From positions 1,781-65,780 of the forward strand of contig DAOUJN010000005.1 in assembly GCA_034422655.1 (NCBI GenBank): 64,000 nucleotides of DNA, read 5' to 3'. The notes under the pieces were generated by a model. It saw only the letters and a list, made by a program, of their open reading frames with translations, had not been told where the DNA came from and did no database searches. Within the stretch, counting starts at the first letter, position 1. Every line of letters begins with the position of its first letter. The DNA comes from Dehalococcoidia bacterium (lineage in GTDB: Bacteria; Chloroflexota; Dehalococcoidia; Lucifugimonadales; UBA3495). The position numbers and the translations under genes were made by a program. Shown piece by piece: positions 724 through 44,400 of this stretch.

Positions 724-1011
724 TCAGAATGGGCGGATGTAGAGCAGGACCATGCCGACCAGCAAGGTGACGAAGCCGCCCAAGGCCAGGTAAAGCATGC
801 GGTCGAGCTTGGCGTTGAGGCGGGTTTCGACCGAGGTGATGCGGTCGTTAGTCTGGGTGATGCGGTCGCCGAGGGAGCGGAGGTCGGCCTGGTGTTCGGT
901 GTGCAGATGGCGCTGGTTGGCGTTCAATTCGGCCAACTGGGTGTTGATGTTACGGAGGTCCGCCTCTACGGCGGCGAGGCGGGGGTTGATGTCGTCGGTG
1001 GCGGTGGTCAT
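724..1011 (-). CDS. hypothetical coiled-coil protein with C-terminal transmembrane anchor
   Basis: 95-aa ORF. It has a heptad-like polar N-terminal part (AVEADLRNINTQLAELNANQRHL...) and then a hydrophobic tail LYLALGGFVTLLVGMVLLYI. It looks more protein-like than the overlapping plus-strand shadow ORFs. Confidence 0.45.
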   Translation of the reverse strand: MTTATDDINPRLAAVEADLRNINTQLAELNANQRHLHTEHQADLRSLGDRITQTNDRITSVETRLNAKLDRMLYLALGGFVTLLVGMVLLYIRPF

Positions 1012-1053: not shown

Positions 1054-1140
1054 TAGCCACGAATACCCACGAATGGGGCACGAATGATTTGTTGGGGTGG
1101 ACAGGGCATTAGTGAACATTCGTGCCCATTCGTGGATTAG
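1054..1140. repeat. CACGAAT palindromic element (family A), copy 1
   Basis: Left arm CCACGAATACCCACGAATGGGGCACGAATG. Right arm CATTCGTGCCCATTCGTGG is its near-perfect reverse complement. Confidence 0.85.
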
Positions 1141-1626: not shown

Positions 1627-1671
1627 AGTGGGAACCTCCAAAGATTTAGATGGGGGGATTTTACCACTGTT

Positions 1672-1800
1672 TATCCACGAATAGGCACGAATGAGCACGA
1701 ATGTTATATTAGCTCCGATAGAATCGTTGTGCAGGTTAGTGTCGTTGGCGGACGAGGAAAAATTAGTGAACATTCGTCCGCCGCGGCGGATTAGTGGATA
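1672..1800. repeat. family A element, copy 2 (long, with CCGCCGCGGCGG insert)
   Basis: TATCCACGAATAGGCACGAATGAGCACGAATG ... GTGAACATTCGTCCGCCGCGGCGGATTAGTGGATA. Confidence 0.8.
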
Positions 1801-7491: not shown

Positions 7492-7643
7492 CTACTCAAA
7501 CCCCAGCTTGCGTTCGTTGAGGCTGACGTAGCGGCCGCCGCTGCCGATGACCAGGTGGTCCAGCAGATCTATGCCCAGCAGTTTGCCGGCGGCTACCAGG
7601 TCGCGGGTGATGGATACGTCCTCCGGGCTGGGCGTGGGGTCGC
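7492..7643 (-). CDS. radC: RadC/JAMM-family protein, exon 2
   Basis: Encodes (G)[49 protein letters not shown], the conserved RadC C-terminus that follows HNHPSG. The frame is restored when joined to 10042. Confidence 0.85.
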
Positions 7644-7708
7644 ATTGGGTAGGGACGGTGCCGCCGATGGCCGGATTGCTCCGACTGGTTTGCGCCATCC
7701 CTCCCACC

Positions 7709-7742
7709 GAACCGGACGTGCCACTTTCGCGGCATCCGGCTC
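7709..7742 (-). ncRNA. group II intron domain V
   Basis: GAGCCGGATGCCGCGAAAGTGGCACGTCCGGTTC: a 34-nt hairpin with a GAAA tetraloop, the AGC-type catalytic triad position and a 2-nt bulge geometry, located about 65 nt before the 3' splice site. Confidence 0.9.
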
Positions 7743-7746
7743 TCCA

Positions 7747-9507
7747 TCAGATGGTTGGTTGGGCTAGACGGTGTGTAGCTTGGTGGCACACCCGGCAGAG
7801 CGTTACTAGGTTGCTGGGCGCGTGGGACTGCATACCTTTGGCGTGGTGGACTTGCAGATTTGTCCGAGTTCCACACTGTCGGCATTTCATCCCGTCGCGC
7901 AGTTTGGCTAGGAGTTTCCGTTCGGTGAGTTCAAGGGGTTCGTTGCGGCTACGTCTGCCGCTCCTGGCCCCAATCGTCGCCGTGTAGATTTGCTCAGCGG
8001 GGCCGGTGGCTCCCAGGGGAAAGTCGCCTGTGTCCTCCATTGCACCGGACAGGTAGGGGTGCGGGAATCCCGTCTTGCCCTTCTGTCTGTAGCGTTGACG
8101 GACAAGTTCCGTGGGAGTAGGGAGCCATTGGTACGCTTCCAGCGAATGTTCGCCTTGGCGCGTTTCTGCGTGCCAGCGGGTTCTGCCGTGGAGCATTTTG
8201 GTCTTGGTGCGGATGAGCTGTTGTTTGCGGCTGCCCTTGTGCTTCTTGAGCAGCCAGTAGAAGTAGCGGAACCAGGTGAACCGCGTGATTTCCTCGATGT
8301 CCGCCGACAGGCTGGTATACCGGTAGTATTCGGCCCAGCCCTTGACGATAGCGTTGAGAGTGGTCAAGCGGTTGTACTCATCCATCCAGGTCCAGTTCCT
8401 GGAAGTCAGGGCTTTGAGCTTCCGTTTCACTCGCTCTTTGCCTTTGGCCGTCGGACGGAGGTGTACTGCCCACTTGCCGCCGGTGTGCTTGCGCTGGATA
8501 TGGAAACCCAGGAAGTCGAAGCCGTCGTTGACGTGGGTGATCAGGGTCTTTTCCGCCGATAGCGTTAGGTGGAGTTCGTTCTCCAGAAATTGCTGTATGG
8601 CCTGTTTGGTGGCCTTGACCTCGGCTTTGGGGGCATTGCTGACGACCACGAAGTCGTCCGCGTAGCGCACCATCCGGTAGTTGCCGAAGCCCGCCTGCCG
8701 TCTCCGTTGCCGGGCGTAGGAGGTGAGTTCCCATTGCTCCGCTGCCCACCGGTCGAACTCGTTGAGGTAGATGTTGGCGAGTAGCGGTGATATGACGCCC
8801 CCTTGTGGCACACCGGCGTCGGTGCGCTTGAAGAGGCGTCCTTCCATTACGCCCGATTTCAGGAATTTCCAGATGAGGTCCAGCACGTCCTTGTCCGCCA
8901 GCCTTTTCCGCAGCAGCTTCATCAACTTCCGATGGTGGACGGTGTCAAAGTAGCTTTGGAGGTCGCCTTCGATGACGTAGTAGTGTTTGACGCTGGTGTT
9001 GAACAGGGGCATGAGGACCGCGATTGCGTCCATAGTGTTACGACCTTTTCGGAAGCCATAGGAATGGGGTTGAAAGTCGGACTCGTAAATCGGGTCAAGA
9101 ATGGCCCGAAGTGCTTCCTGCACGATGCGGTCCCGTAGGGCTGGGATGCCCAGAGGACGTTGCTTGCCGTCGTGCTTGGGTATGTAGACCCGCCGGACTG
9201 GTTGCGGCGTGTACGTCTTGCGCTTCAGTTGGTCGAGGAGCGTAGTCATCTGGCGCTCGTAGTCCTTCTTGAACGCATCCCGTGTCTTGCCGTCCACTCC
9301 GTTGGTCTGACTGCCCGGTCGTGCCAGAACCCTTTCAGCCGCCGTGTGCATCCAACAGTCCCAATGCAACAGGCTGTACAGGTTGGTGAACCTGTGGGCT
9401 GGATGCTCACTGGCCGTCTTTGCCAGGAACTTTTGCTTTTCTGCCATCTTCGTCGGGTACATACATCCCTTCTCCGGCTTAGTTCGCTCTGGTTCTTTGC
9501 ACTGCAT
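7747..9507 (-). CDS. group II intron reverse transcriptase/maturase with C-terminal HNH endonuclease domain
   Basis: RPLGIPALRDRIVQEAL, GVPQGGVISPLLANIYL and the YADDFVV RT motifs. C-terminal CRQCG...LQVHHAKG...LCRVCHQATH. The true start may be an internal Met at 9462 or 9447. Confidence 0.92.
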   Translation of the reverse strand: MQCKEPERTKPEKGCMYPTKMAEKQKFLAKTASEHPAHRFTNLYSLLHWDCWMHTAAERVLARPGSQTNGVDGKTRDAFKKDYERQMTTLLDQLKRKTYTPQPVRRVYIPKHDGKQRPLGIPALRDRIVQEALRAILDPIYESDFQPHSYGFRKGRNTMDAIAVLMPLFNTSVKHYYVIEGDLQSYFDTVHHRKLMKLLRKRLADKDVLDLIWKFLKSGVMEGRLFKRTDAGVPQGGVISPLLANIYLNEFDRWAAEQWELTSYARQRRRQAGFGNYRMVRYADDFVVVSNAPKAEVKATKQAIQQFLENELHLTLSAEKTLITHVNDGFDFLGFHIQRKHTGGKWAVHLRPTAKGKERVKRKLKALTSRNWTWMDEYNRLTTLNAIVKGWAEYYRYTSLSADIEEITRFTWFRYFYWLLKKHKGSRKQQLIRTKTKMLHGRTRWHAETRQGEHSLEAYQWLPTPTELVRQRYRQKGKTGFPHPYLSGAMEDTGDFPLGATGPAEQIYTATIGARSGRRSRNEPLELTERKLLAKLRDGMKCRQCGTRTNLQVHHAKGMQSHAPSNLVTLCRVCHQATHRLAQPTI

Positions 9508-12387: not shown

Positions 12388-12437
12388 GGATTTTTACCTC
12401 CCGTAGTTAACGTTATTCAGGATCAGTTCTTCCTGAT

Positions 12438-12503
12438 TATCCACGAATGAACACGAAGGCGCACGAATGTAATTGGTGGATATTCGTGGTCATTCGTGGA
12501 TAA
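12438..12503. repeat. family A element, copy 3 (compact form)
   Basis: TATCCACGAATGAACACGAAGGCGCACGAATGTAATTGGTGGATATTCGTGGTCATTCGTGGATAAAG. Confidence 0.85.
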
Positions 12504-12508
12504 AGGGA

Positions 12509-19768: not shown

Positions 19769-19860
19769 TGGCGGAGGGAGTGGGATTCGAACCCACGATC
19801 CCGGTTTCCCAGGATAAGCGCTTAGCAGGCGCCCGCACTAGACCACTATGCGATCCCTCC
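19769..19860 (-). tRNA. tRNA-Ser (GCU), CCA encoded
   Basis: GGAGGGATCGCATAGTGGTCTAGTGCGGGCGCCTGCTAAGCGCTTATCCTGGGAAACCGGGATCGTGGGTTCGAATCCCACTCCCTCCGCCA. 7-bp acceptor stem, 3-bp D stem, CUGCUAA anticodon loop, long variable arm and a GTTCGAATC T-loop. Confidence 0.92.
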
Positions 19861-22561: not shown

Positions 22562-22568
22562 AGCCGTC

Positions 22569-22648
22569 AATCCACGAATCCGCCGCGGCGGACGAATTTC
22601 CACGAATGGCGTGAGATAAATGGAATATTGGTGGGAATTCGTGGATTA
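22569..22648. repeat. family A element, copy 4
   Basis: AATCCACGAATCCGCCGCGGCGGACGAATTTCCACGAATGG...GGGAATTCGTGGATTAC. Confidence 0.8.
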
Positions 22649-23457: not shown

Positions 23458-23473
23458 CCTGTCTCCGCTAATT

Positions 23474-23560
23474 TATCTACGAATCCACATGAATAATCAC
23501 TAATGTCTAATGTGCCCCATTCCGTCATTCGTGAAAATTCGTGCCCATTCGTGGATAAAG
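23474..23560. repeat. family A element, copy 5
   Basis: TATCTACGAATCCACATGAATAATCAC...CATTCGTGAAAATTCGTGCCCATTCGTGGATAAAG. Confidence 0.8.
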
Positions 23561-33208: not shown

Positions 33209-33606
33209 GGTCCCTCCTGTATTTTGGAATGCTCCTGAATCCGGGTTCCGTTAAGGGTGACCCATGCCGAGCCCAGCACCGGCCCCGCATGTTAAGGGAA
33301 GGTTAACAGATTCTAGAGTGGCCGGTGGGCAAAAGCAACATACCTCGCAATACCGGCACAACGAGCCCGGGCAACGAGTTTTCTAATCTACTGACACTTG
33401 CCCATTGACGCTCTGGAAAACCCGTCTTTAGCCTGAACAATATCGGGTGAGACGGGGAAAGTCGCCGCCAACCGGCGACTGGCGGACAATCGAACAGGGC
33501 GGGCCAAATGCGTCCGCAACCAACGCGAGGGACTGACCTTTGTGGCTCGGTCCCTTCTGTTGTCCCCGCGCCCACCCGACCAAATCCAGGAAAAGGAGGT
33601 GAAAAA

Positions 33607-34308
33607 TTGAAGGCAATGTTTCCCGAAGGCGTTGATTCCCCGCAGGAACGCCAAGGGCTGCTGGAATCCCTGGAGACCTACCGCCGGGGCCTGGCCGACG
33701 CGCCCCTGCTGCGGAAATGGGGCGGCGGGCCGGCCGGAGGCCGCGGGGTGGCGGTCGAGGACGCGGACGGCTTCCCTCGCTCCCAAAAGAACGCCGATAC
33801 GGAGGCCCCCATGACCTTCGTAATTTCCAGCGAGGAGGTGGACCGCCACGGCGACGTGGTCCTGGCCCAGGGCTGGCGGCTGCAGGCTTACCTGCAAAAC
33901 CCCGTCCTCCTGTGGGCCCACGACTATGGCCGTCCCGTCATCGGCCGCGCCCTGGCCGTGTGGCCCGAGCCGGGGCAGCTTCTGGCCCGCCTGGAGTTCG
34001 CCCCCACCGAATTCGCCAGCCACGTGGCTGCCCTGTACCGGGGTGGCTACCAGCACGGCGTGTCGGTGGGCTTCAGGCCCCTGCGGTACGAGGAGCGGCG
34101 CGACCCCAGGACCGGCGCCTTCCTGGGCATCCGCTTCCTGGAGCAGGAACTGCTCGAGGTGAGCGCCGTTCCGGTCCCGGCCAACCGTCACGCTCTGCGC
34201 CGGGCCGCTCAATCCACGAATGGGCACGAATCATCACCAATAGTGGAATCCATCATCGCGGTTATTCGTGAAAATTCGTGGTCATTCGTGGAAAAAAAGA
34301 ACAGTTAA
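33607..34308 (+). CDS. HK97-family phage prohead protease
   Basis: ...MTFVISSEEVDRHGDVVLAQGWRLQAYLQNPVLLWAHDYGRPVIG...GVSVGF...LLEVSAVPVPAN is a Peptidase_S78/U35-like core. TTG at 33607 lies 5 nt after AAGGAGGTG. The last roughly 30 codons lie inside a family A repeat. Confidence 0.8.
   Translation: MKAMFPEGVDSPQERQGLLESLETYRRGLADAPLLRKWGGGPAGGRGVAVEDADGFPRSQKNADTEAPMTFVISSEEVDRHGDVVLAQGWRLQAYLQNPVLLWAHDYGRPVIGRALAVWPEPGQLLARLEFAPTEFASHVAALYRGGYQHGVSVGFRPLRYEERRDPRTGAFLGIRFLEQELLEVSAVPVPANRHALRRAAQSTNGHESSPIVESIIAVIRENSWSFVEKKNS
34211..34292. repeat. family A element, copy 6 (overlaps the protease 3' end)
   Basis: AATCCACGAATGGGCACGAATCATCACC...TTATTCGTGAAAATTCGTGGTCATTCGTGGA. Confidence 0.85.
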
Positions 34309-35651: not shown

Positions 35652-35667
35652 GCCCAACACGGTTATT

Positions 35668-35749
35668 GATCCACGAATAGGCACGAATTTTCACGAATGG
35701 GATTGGGGCAAATAAATCATTAGTGAATATTCGTGTCTATTCGTGGATA
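35668..35749. repeat. family A element, copy 7
   Basis: GATCCACGAATAGGCACGAATTTTCACGAATGG...GTGAATATTCGTGTCTATTCGTGGATAG. Confidence 0.85.
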
Positions 35750-35768
35750 GAAAAAGTTGGAGTAATTT

Positions 35769-36578: not shown

Positions 36579-36584
36579 CCGGCT

Positions 36585-36664
36585 AATCCACGAATAGACA
36601 CGAATGAGCACTAATGGAATAAGGAAAAAATTTCTTCGTACCCCTTCGTGTCCTTCGTGGATAA
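36585..36664. repeat. family A element, copy 8 (degenerate right arm)
   Basis: AATCCACGAATAGACACGAATGAGCACTAATGG...CTTCGTACCCCTTCGTGTCCTTCGTGGATAAA. Confidence 0.8.
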
Positions 36665-36680
36665 ATGAAGGAGAAAAGCT

Positions 36681-44375: not shown

Positions 44376-44400
44376 TTATCCGCGAATGCACACGAAAGTG
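44376..44400. repeat. family A half-element (partial)
   Basis: TTATCCGCGAATGCACACGAAAGTG. Confidence 0.5.

Follow-up and report, generated by a model that had tools for sequence, protein, structure and literature searches.

Interspersed palindromic arrays of CACGAAT words in a Dehalococcoidia genome and a GxxExxY gene bracketed by the same arms

Two classes of enzyme have previously been paired with dispersed palindromic repeats of their own, namely the Y1 transposases of REPIN-RAYT systems and the GIY-YIG nucleases known as Ssn. In the former, REP doublets that form hairpins accompany REP-associated tyrosine transposases (PMC3116915; PMC3337134; PMC5581495; bioRxiv 10.1101/2021.07.10.451892), and compensatory changes are common in these REP hairpins (PMC3116915). 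In the latter, site-specific single-strand DNA nucleases occur with NTS/SRM repeats (PMC11893778). The genomic signature seen at the locus described here is the same as that reported for these two other enzyme classes (PMC11893778; PMC3116915). It is carried by CACGAAT palindromes (Family A) that lie in a 64-kb stretch of a Dehalococcoidia genome, the whole of which we call the window. We think it probable, at roughly 0.6, that the Family A copies represent the gene-less form of a small cassette-type element whose full form carries a GxxExxY nuclease gene, and the system is best read as REPIN-RAYT-like or Ssn-like, built on a PD-(D/E)XK nuclease. In the literature the element was not found described under its motif, GxxExxY, PDDEXK_3, TIGR04256/PF13366, or palindromic or extragenic repeats.

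The original prediction described Family A as REP/MITE-like and proposed a census of its motif. CACGAAT occurs 34 times in the window as against 5.5 times expected (the mean of dinucleotide-preserving shuffles), with a shuffle maximum of 12 and 0 of 100 shuffles reaching the observed count, so that the motif is indeed commoner than composition predicts. This CACGAAT content consists of eight inverted-arm elements and one weak half copy (Table 1), and on reading the sequence all eight full copies are found where they had been placed. Family A is confirmed as a genuine interspersed repeat family, and its REP/MITE-like description is supported. The family numbers ~90 copies in the 3-Mb genome and ~160 arms, with 49 (about 50) clean arm pairs and, for the rest, many degenerate or solo arms. 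Genome-wide, 127 of 134 arms lie outside genes, the heptamers run in the order CACGAAT ... ATTCGTG in every case, the reverse order never being seen, and adjacent heptamers on the same strand are spaced at 10 bp in 112 of 131 instances. The helical phasing that had been claimed holds at this 10-bp step for the CACGAAT subfamily, whereas sister subfamilies step 9 bp.

Table 1. Positions of the Family A copies in the window and of the cassette on contig C5.
Feature	Position	Strand	Character	Neighbouring genes
Element copy 1	1054..1140	.	right arm E = 6e-11	small coiled-coil ORF (724-1011, minus strand) and AhpC/TSA gene stop
Element copy 2	1670..1800	.	long centre	divergent spacer between AhpC and gamma-glutamyltranspeptidase genes
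Element copy 3	12436..12504	.	shortest form	MaoC-like dehydratase gene stop to TPP-enzyme gene start, both minus strand
Element copy 4	22567..22648	.		directly after GcvT-like gene stop
Element copy 5	23472..23560	.	left arm decayed, right arm intact	prolyl-oligopeptidase gene stop to ribosome-binding site of small HATPase-domain gene
Element copy 6	34209..34296	.		within prohead-protease frame 33508-34308
Element copy 7	35666..35751	.	3+3 units	capsid gene stop to ribosome-binding site of next gene
Element copy 8	36584..36665	.	hybrid	
Half copy	44376..44400	+	candidate decayed solo arm (TTATCCGCGAATGCACACGAAAGTG); not significant alone (arm profile, E = 0.69)	
Full cassette, 542 bp	contig C5 262661-263202		inverted arms around GxxExxY gene	
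GxxExxY nuclease gene, 125 aa	contig C5 262750-263124			197 kb downstream, same contig

An arm profile built on 74 arms of the genome finds both arms of most window copies, with E values from 1e-5 to 1e-11, and gives weak scores to variant or degenerate arms of the copies at 1672, 22569 and 36585 (copies 2, 4 and 8). The left arm of copy 1, with exact CACGAAT units at 1058, 1068 and 1079 and an 11-bp step among them, goes unreported by the profile despite its three exact heptamers; the right arm of this copy is CATTAGTGaacATTCGTGcccATTCGTGGATTAG. Copy 2 pairs a left arm of three exact units with a right arm that is the CCGCCGCGGCGG variant, and copy 4 has a CCGCCGCGGCGG insertion in its left arm and a degenerate right arm. 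This variant, first described as an extra palindrome carried by some copies, is genuine: the 12-mer occurs 29 times in the genome, 15 to 19 of these within an arm. Copy 3 consists of 3+3 units about an apical loop of 3 nt, copy 7 has a nearly perfect outer stem of 20 bp, and copy 8 joins a CACGAAT-type left arm to a CACGAAG-type right arm (CTTCGTGtcCTTCGTGGATAA). Judged on a crude gene map, the window copies are intergenic, as had been stated, except for 34211-34292 (copy 6), which is the 3' end of the prohead-protease frame; the frame reads through this element, which provides its last codons.

The window copies vary among relatives at the same gene junctions, some relatives carrying a copy that others lack. 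Copy 2 is found at its junction in most genomes of the genus, nested in some of them with CACGAAG-type arms, and copy 7 is present in 4 of 14 relatives, the remainder having other repeat families there. Of 4 readable junctions within the genus, 2 have copy 3, in degenerate form both times, and the other 2 have unrelated sequence in its place. At the copy 6 junction none of the 13 relatives with a readable junction has a CACGAAT element. The copy 5 junction is a near-empty site in one relative (G012), where only a spacer of 15-18 nt is seen, with no target duplication visible and without the copy 5 centre; the copy 8 junction in one relative measures only 27 nt. The relatives diverge by 10-15% in coding DNA, and for this reason most junctions have other repeat families in place of the copy and not a clean gap.

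What is conserved in these elements is the words; base pairing is not. At spacer triplets and variable positions the two arms of one element are no more alike than arms taken from different elements (identity 0.403 in either case, permutation p = 0.46), and pairing with G-U allowed reaches 0.523 within an element and 0.519 between elements; compensatory hairpin changes give no signal with or without G-U, nor by transcribed strand. With conservation confined to the heptamers and the spacer triplets free, the arms behave as the array of binding words that had been suggested as one possibility. The centres of the copies show no non-self match between any two copies, and they match neither the cassette, the rest of the genome nor a phage collection. 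Because no two copies share a centre, plain copy-and-paste of whole elements is not what is seen, and the centres find no support as target-site pieces, captured DNA or phage-derived spacers. Element lengths have modes near 78-80, 86-89 and 136-139 bp. The ~10-bp length steps are strong in this genome and marginal only in other taxa, and for the latter reason we do not treat a 10-bp quantisation of length as established. All copy centres are unrelated, yet the element lengths step by ~10 bp.

As had been claimed, the window holds no transposase; what was overlooked, on the other hand, is a nuclease gene further along the same contig. This gene is the one of the genome's two PF13366 genes that is bracketed by CACGAAT/CACTAAT arms. 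The cassette arms are inverted and 32 bp each, of the form TT(T/A)ATC-CACGAAT-rgg-CACGAAT-rTT-CACTAAT-G, and their sequences, TTTATCCACGAAcaaaCACGAATgttCACTAAT ... ATTAGTGaatATTCGTGtgtATTAGTGGATTAA, are the same as those of the arms of the gene-less copies. The cassette protein scores 145.9 bits against PF13366 (cut-off 22) and 145.7 bits against TIGR04256 'GxxExxY' (cut-off 35). Residues E30, D70, E80 and K82 are invariant across 30 homologues and are consistent with a PD-(D/E)XK motif. A structure predicted at pLDDT 91 has its best fold matches in Cas4 SSO0001, Hjc resolvases and lambda exonuclease, solved structures giving no match by sequence search with the protein, and on this model the protein is a minimal PD-(D/E)XK nuclease fold. 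The family is a broad one (4,890 protein clusters at E <= 1e-10), and PF13366 has been listed as of unknown function since 2012; our literature search found no biochemical evidence for it, and the classifying paper, too, gives its function as unknown.

The second GxxExxY gene of the genome has CATGGATGGACAGGAT arms built on a different word, ACAGGAT. Dispersed copies of these arms number 35 and form a separate gene-less family, and the second gene with its CATGGATGGACAGGAT family is an independent replicate of the system within one genome. In 41 related genomes, own included, inverted phased arrays flank all of the homologues examined (19 of 19, to be counted as about 9 independent loci). The flanking 7-mer word follows the protein lineage: CACGAAT/CACTAAT goes with proteins at least 76% identical to the cassette protein, CACGAAG with those at 60-71% and ACAGGAT with those at ~50%, while CGCAGAT, CACAGAG and CGCAGAG are found with more distant proteins. 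Within any one cassette the units of both arms change in concert. Because gene and arms are physically linked, co-inheritance by itself accounts for part of the way they diverge along a lineage. The counts of T-type and G-type arms do not track the type that flanks the resident gene, and agreement between the two at position 7 of the word, tried as a sign of fine specificity, is rejected. At least 10 other phyla have identical arms, and in three MAGs, an uncultured Bacteroidetes, a Prevotella and a Lentisphaeraceae, CACGAAT arms stand on both sides of the gene.

Of 40 relatives, only those in the genome's own genus have the arms, with a range of 0 to 78 pattern matches each; the arm pattern has zero matches in the 24 other genera belonging to the family and order, and two members of the genus are free of arms. 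Within the genus, arm abundance accompanies an intact gene. Arm-pattern totals range from 30 to 110 in the 7 genomes of the genus whose cognate gene is intact or nearly so (in one of these, G015, the gene match has an in-frame TAA) and from 0 to 66 in the 10 where it is broken or absent, a difference whose one-sided Mann-Whitney p of 0.0014 is overstated, since the genomes are kin. An exception is G005, with 66 matches and no cognate gene detected, although the master locus there reads N. The resident cassette sits at a single locus beside der/engA in 9 genomes; remnant arms are found at this locus where the gene has been lost, and nothing is found there in the two arm-free genomes.

How the gene-less copies might arise can be outlined as follows. 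Several nuclease protomers would recognise the 7-mer words spaced every 10 bp along each arm, and such word recognition would enable the enzyme to act on any DNA bearing such arms. One resident gene, itself mostly vertically inherited, could then give rise in trans to the gene-less arm pairs and the solo arms and maintain them, in a parallel to the dependence of REPINs on RAYT and the pairing of NTS/SRM with Ssn. Copies would persist only where they are harmless, in the short stretch that separates a stop codon from the following ribosome-binding site, or between convergent genes. We infer that the nuclease binds the words, cuts there, and thereby gives rise to new copies. PD-(D/E)XK enzymes hydrolyse DNA and, to our knowledge, none joins strands alone, which leaves the new-copy step without a known chemistry. 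The unrelated centres, taken with the 10-bp steps, hint that new copies arise by a process reproducing only the arms, at a measured distance from one another, and such a process would be something other than ordinary transposition.

Were the elements instead host-level RNA structures, that is, intercistronic or 3'-end hairpins acting in mRNA stability, termination or pausing, or processing, the nuclease gene would lie inside one of them by chance; RNA stability and termination had been among the original suggestions. The predicted hairpins are very stable (-25 to -42 kcal/mol, z -4 to -10). Outer ends lie a median of 5 nt past the stop codon and a median of 25 nt ahead of the start codon, and of the copy-bearing spacers 28 are tandem, 13 convergent and 4 divergent (genome-wide shares 62%, 20% and 19%). 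However, no pairing is conserved beyond the words, even with G-U and on either strand, and the element centres are no more foldable than shuffles (mean z = -0.7), which also leaves the idea of the centres as hairpins unsupported. A T run does not as a rule follow the hairpin, and Rfam covariance models give no family match at gathering threshold for the elements, the sole matches in the window being a group II intron and a tRNA, neither at an element. Presence at a given operon junction differs among species of the genus, the family is absent from two members of the genus and all 24 sister genera, and arrays stand at every homologue of one particular gene family; we regard an origin as host RNA elements as unlikely. 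The absence of copies from two genomes of the genus is also incompatible with a core host function, and so weighs against the arms being a passively spread binding array for a chromosomal protein such as DnaA, a nucleoid protein or a regulator. Words conserved between free spacers would be expected of such an array, the ~10-bp length steps would fit proteins on one face of the duplex, and the arm terminus TTATCCACG shares 8 of 9 positions with the classical DnaA box, TTATCCACA. This likeness is not common to the sister cassette lineages, however, whose termini and words are quite different (CATGGATGGACAGGAT, CGCAGAG), and the TTATC part is missing from the inner units, all of which makes a host binding array seem very improbable.

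It also appears quite unlikely that the arms are recombination or recognition sites of another enzyme, for which GxxExxY would be only one of several cargoes, as in integron-like or toxin-antitoxin-carrying cassettes. The centres of the gene-less copies do all differ, and arm pairs bracket a PIN/MazE-like pair with an HNH ORF (contig C8, 38620-39833) and a nucleotidyltransferase-HEPN fusion (contig C39, 147393-148456), but both of these cases depend on weaker arm matches (E = 8e-4 and 0.04 for the arms on contig C39) and could be two adjacent solo arms. Moreover, the word changes with the GxxExxY lineage in all cassette units together, arm abundance follows the state of the GxxExxY gene, and no other gene recurs beside the arms at the loci read. 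Ordinary IS MITEs, or RAYT-dependent REPs, with an enzyme encoded elsewhere or lost, would equally be short, intergenic and multi-copy with inverted ends, and a RAYT-type enzyme encoded elsewhere had been among the original suggestions. This one fails: the genome, 96.9% complete, has no match to PF01797 and thus no Y1/RAYT match, while the control search is positive in 6 of 14 named genomes, and the RAYT hypothesis is rejected. No direct repeat of >= 4 bp is seen at any offset in 30 copies and TA flanking is statistically independent on the two sides, so that a TA target and a target-site duplication are rejected as well. The copies have no common internal sequence, long arm pairs enclose GxxExxY, a toxin-antitoxin pair or an NTase-HEPN gene and never a transposase, and no parent IS with the same terminal repeats was found in this genome, the only one examined for it. 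We give hardly any credence to such a MITE or REP origin.

If the GxxExxY nuclease does recognise the arms, it would add a third, independent enzyme class to the two that come with dispersed palindromic repeats of their own, and a small nuclease plus cognate repeats would be suggested as a general mode of DNA persistence in bacterial genomes. A function would then be at hand for the large orphan family PF13366, and with it a source of new site-specific nucleases whose recognition words vary by lineage. It is possible, and we put this wider claim forward only tentatively, that GxxExxY proteins are a new class of sequence-specific nucleases reading evolvable arrays of 7-mer words, and that with their arms they make up a REPIN-RAYT-like PD-(D/E)XK replicator system, widespread across bacterial phyla, that seeds operon junctions with gene-less copies. 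For annotation, such elements account for many intergenic arrays that look conserved and might be taken for operators, iterons or riboswitch-like elements, and the prohead protease here shows that they can alter the end of a gene.

Iterons of plasmid and phage replication origins are direct repeats of short words at the helical period, and the arms described here share this direct repetition of short words. Unlike iterons, these are ~90 dispersed chromosomal copies, always in inverted pairs, with no replication initiator gene adjoining. Correia and Nezha MITEs, and transposon ends with several transposase-binding sites such as those of Tn7, Mu and IS21, also come close, being short and non-autonomous, with inverted ends, repeated subterminal words, nested insertions and clusters. 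They differ in that the present elements have no target-site duplication, DDE transposase or common internal sequence, and in that the words here are only 7 bp and strictly periodic.

The closer likeness is to systems that pair an enzyme with its repeats. As in REPIN-RAYT, a single resident enzyme gene, passed on mostly by vertical descent, lies between repeats of its own. These are also found outside genes as tens to hundreds of gene-less inverted doublets whose ends are conserved, whose spacer varies and whose overall lengths fall at preferred values, and as solo remnants and tandem clusters; here, too, the repeat population is smaller where the gene has been lost. The enzyme, on the other hand, would be a 125-aa PD-(D/E)XK nuclease and not a Y1 HUH transposase, and the arm is three 7-mer words at a 10-bp period where a REP is a stem with a GTAG-type head. 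The compensatory changes of REP hairpins are not seen in CACGAAT elements, and CACGAAT arms are identical across many phyla, which points to horizontal spread. The differences from Ssn are of the same kind, in that the flanked gene belongs to PF13366 of the PD-(D/E)XK family and not to the Ssn clade of GIY-YIG, phased word arrays take the place of a single short hairpin, and GxxExxY could act on either single- or double-stranded DNA. In both cases, nevertheless, a small nuclease gene has a repeat on either side, the flanking repeat is found also in hundreds of dispersed copies, the repeat variant shifts with the nuclease lineage, and gene and repeats co-occur across phyla.

The best-supported reading of Family A, the palindromic elements built of inverted arms of CACGAAT words, is that they are gene-less arm pairs of a cassette whose complete form brackets a GxxExxY nuclease gene. 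The genome from which the window comes carries two PF13366 genes, one of which lies on the window's own contig, 197 kb away, within a 542-bp unit that has CACGAAT/CACTAAT arms at both ends, and this links the Family A arms to the gene. Its product scores 146 bits on PF13366 and 146 bits on TIGR04256 (“GxxExxY”), and an alignment of 30 homologues shows no variation at E30 (the E of GxxExxY), D70, E80 or K82. No sequence-related solved structure was found for this protein; the best fold matches to its AlphaFold model (pLDDT 91) are PD-(D/E)XK nucleases, among them Cas4 SSO0001, archaeal Hjc resolvases and lambda exonuclease.

A protein search over 41 related genomes, this one included, returned 19 full or nearly full GxxExxY homologues, each of which has a short phased word repeated in inverted arrays on its flanks; the word differs with the protein lineage. 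Homologues at least 76% identical to our protein have CACGAAT or CACTAAT; those 60–71% identical, CACGAAG; those about 50% identical, ACAGGAT with a CATGGATG terminus; and more distant ones, CGCAGAT, CACAGAG or CGCAGAG. Each cassette uses one word, identical across all units of both arms. Because several of the 19 loci are orthologous, we count about nine independent cases, to which an uncultured Bacteroidetes MAG, a Prevotella MAG and a Lentisphaeraceae MAG add three from other phyla, each with a gene 51–58% identical to ours between CACGAAT arms. The second PF13366 gene in the genome, with its CATGGATGGACAGGATnnACAGGAT arms, is a separate gene-and-arm system and hence an internal replicate: the CATGGATGGACAGGATnnACAGGAT 16-mer is scattered through the genome in 35 copies, likewise in inverted pairs, and ACAGGATNNACAGGAT occurs 78 times. 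Two further CACGAAT arm pairs, on contigs C8 and C39, bracket other genes (see table), which could be cargo of like cassettes or could lie between neighbouring solo (unpaired) arms by coincidence.

Locations of genes, arm pairs and other features in the window and elsewhere in the same genome
Feature	Location	Strand	Remarks
Group II intron	window 7492-9507	minus	Rfam RF00029 match at 7644-7744
Group II intron ORF	window 7747-9507	minus	reverse-transcriptase, maturase and HNH domains
tRNA-Ser gene	window 19769-19860	minus	GCT anticodon
GxxExxY gene	contig C5 262750-263124		CACGAAT/CACTAAT arms
Second GxxExxY gene (locus L115/L164)	contig C30 46287-46628, outside window		flanked by CATGGATGGACAGGATnnACAGGAT arms, 9-bp period
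CACGAAT arm pair	contig C8 38620-39833		brackets PIN/MazE-like toxin-antitoxin pair and HNH ORF
CACGAAT arm pair	contig C39 147393-148456		brackets nucleotidyltransferase-HEPN fusion

In nine genomes of the genus the cassette sits at one site adjoining the der/engA GTPase gene, with the GxxExxY gene broken in two of them. The same site holds a lone right arm in G009 and degenerate remnants in G001, G012 and G014, and it is empty in G002 and G016, the two genomes without arms anywhere. The gene is thus a single-copy, largely vertically inherited resident and the arms its dispersed counterpart. Counted with the pattern ATCCACGAATNNNCACGAAT, arms number 78 in our genome and 72, 55, 39, 30, 25, 24, 22, 17, 14, 6, 6, 3, 2, 1, 0 and 0 in the 16 others of the genus. 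The pattern is absent from each of 24 genomes of other genera of the family and order, and a reversed-pattern control gave no match in any genome. CACGAAG-type arms occur throughout the genus, and their counts co-vary with those of the CACGAAT type (Spearman 0.75). With both types summed, matches number 30–110 in the seven genomes whose cognate gene is intact or nearly so (one of the seven, G015, has an in-frame TAA in its gene match), as against 0–66 in the ten with a broken or absent gene; the one-sided Mann-Whitney p of 0.0014 overstates the case, since the genomes compared are relatives. In G005, with 66 matches, no gene was detected in the readable sequence; the der-locus stretch where the cassette would lie reads N.

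Among species-representative genomes at least 114 loci have arms, in Chloroflexota, Planctomycetota, Acidobacteriota, Bacteroidota, Lentisphaerota, Verrucomicrobiota, Armatimonadota, Spirochaetota, Cloacimonadota and others. This distribution is consistent with horizontal transfer into the lineage and subsequent expansion there, in that the arms are absent from sister genera yet present in distant phyla. In a Candidatus Limimorpha (Bacteroidales) MAG, nine tandem 73-bp units (locus L058, 2269–2924) suggested a CRISPR array by their spacing; each unit is instead a complete inverted-arm CACGAAT element.

Within the window, eight of the nine copies originally claimed are complete elements, each starting with (T/A)ATCCACGAAT, continuing through one or two more CACGAAT or CACTAAT units and a variable centre, and closing on the mirror-image ...ATTCGTGGAT(A/T); the ninth, the half copy at 44376, is weak and not significant alone. 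CACGAAT occurs 34 times, against a mean of 5.5 and a maximum of 12 in dinucleotide-preserving shuffles. For most window copies a profile of the genome's arms matches the two arms at E 1e-5 to 1e-11, with weak scores for variant or degenerate arms of copies 1672, 22569 and 36585 and no report of the left arm of copy 1054. The adjoining genes are all ordinary (AhpC/TSA, gamma-glutamyltranspeptidase, TPP enzyme, MaoC-like dehydratase, GcvT, prolyl oligopeptidase), and beside them stands an HK97-type prohead protease and capsid cluster that is kept in nearly every genome of the genus and is therefore not a recent prophage. The earlier-noted overlap of copy 34211–34292 with the 3' end of the protease gene is borne out: the frame (33508–34308) runs through the element and lacks a ~40-codon C-terminal stretch that relatives encode past the conserved core, so the element has replaced the gene end and supplies the stop.

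The whole assembly (3.02 Mb, 50 contigs, 61.6% GC), in which the window occupies 1781–65780 of contig C5, contains 473 exact heptamers forming 92 clusters of two or more, with 10-bp spacing between same-strand neighbours in 112 of 131 cases and plus-strand units always preceding minus-strand ones. The arm consensus is TT(T/A)ATC-CACGAAT-rgg-CACGAAT-rTT-CACTAAT-G, with conservation fading ~6 bases outside the first word. At E ≤ 0.1 the profile finds 160 arms, split 77 to 83 between the two strands and forming 49 clean pairs; many “solo” arms have a partner that is decayed or carries a CCGCCGCGGCGG variant. This 12-mer, the extra palindrome earlier noticed in some copies, is indeed present there, with 15 to 19 of its 29 genomic occurrences inside arms. 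The intergenic placement originally described holds for 127 of 134 arms on a crude gene map; copy 34211, read through by the protease frame, departs from it. Outer ends fall a median of 5 nt past a stop codon and 25 nt ahead of a start codon, and the elements therefore almost fill short spacers. Of the copy-bearing spacers, 28 are tandem, 13 convergent and 4 divergent (genome-wide shares 62%, 20% and 19%).

Relatives differ at the junctions orthologous to six window copies: in some the element is present, if sometimes decayed, in others a different family of repeats lies there, and in a few the spacer is short. Copy 34211, which takes the place of the protease frame's variable C-terminal part, is unique to our genome; 4 of 14 relatives have copy 35668; the junction of copy 36585 is a mere 27 nt long in one relative; and that of copy 23474 has, in G012, 15–18 nt between stop codon and ribosome-binding site, where neither a duplication nor any remnant of the centre is seen. 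The element at 1672 is old. Its ortholog in G010 (locus L170) is a complete CACGAAT element within a complete CACGAAG element, a nesting that reflects either insertion of one type into the other's centre or BIME-like mosaic clusters. In this genome and its relatives the capsid-cluster junctions (e.g., L131, L133, L134, L137, L140, L143) are also held, from species to species, by at least four further families of intergenic repeats: GTAGGGGCGCACGGCCGTGCGCCCCTAC palindromes, CCCTCACCCCCGGCCCCTCTCCC...GGGAGAGGGGCCGGGGGTGAGGG pairs, phased arrays of the GAGACACGGAGAAACGGAGG type (probably the arms of other GxxExxY lineages), and a GGTTCCATTTTGGCCCATTTTGGGGG module, frequently adjacent to solo CACGAAT arms.

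Among the rivals to a nuclease-linked arm pair is a role at the RNA level. The hairpins originally proposed are predicted on folding, the words alone giving very stable structures; no Rfam family matches the elements, and the variable positions (spacer triplets and flanks) are as alike between elements as within one (identity 0.403 in both, p = 0.46), with no within-element arm likeness above background if G-U pairing on either strand is counted as well. Conservation lies in the words and not in a stem. A further rival is an ordinary MITE or REP. TA is common on each side of the copies, statistically independently between sides, and no flanking direct repeats of at least 4 bp were found. Among the centres of 46 paired copies no two are related, and none resembles the interior of the cassette or any other part of the genome; nor do they match phages or fold better than shuffles. 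Such unrelated centres argue against plain copy-and-paste. The suggested RAYT-type transposase encoded elsewhere did not materialize, no Y1 transposase being found in this genome.

The arms might also be an array for a host protein, or the cassettes might be served by another enzyme. For the copy-forming step, no chemistry is known by which a lone PD-(D/E)XK enzyme would carry it out. Taken modulo 10, the spacing of the terminal units is 8, 9, 0 or 1 in 40 of the 52 copies (Rayleigh R 0.51–0.54, p near 1e-6), so that end-to-end lengths step by ~10 bp despite the unrelated centres; seven copies are 136–139 bp long, with mutually unrelated centres of 66–69 nt. Because this signal is marginal in other taxa, we record the length steps as unexplained, not established.

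If Family A does consist of gene-less arm pairs of the cassette, the arms would be binding arrays for the GxxExxY nuclease, which may both cleave and make new copies. We found no published description of these arms in the literature searched, and a 2012 table entry for PF13366 gives only an unknown function and multiple horizontal transfers. In its behaviour the system would resemble REPIN-RAYT, or else the Ssn nuclease and its NTS/SRM repeats. With the former it shares a single-copy, largely vertical resident gene and dispersed repeats, a pattern outlined for RAYTs and REPINs (PMC3116915). With the latter it shares the genomic signature, which in Ssn led on experimental follow-up to a site-specific single-strand nuclease (PMC11893778). 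We rate GxxExxY and its arms as a case of a small nuclease or transposase with a cognate population of dispersed palindromic repeats.
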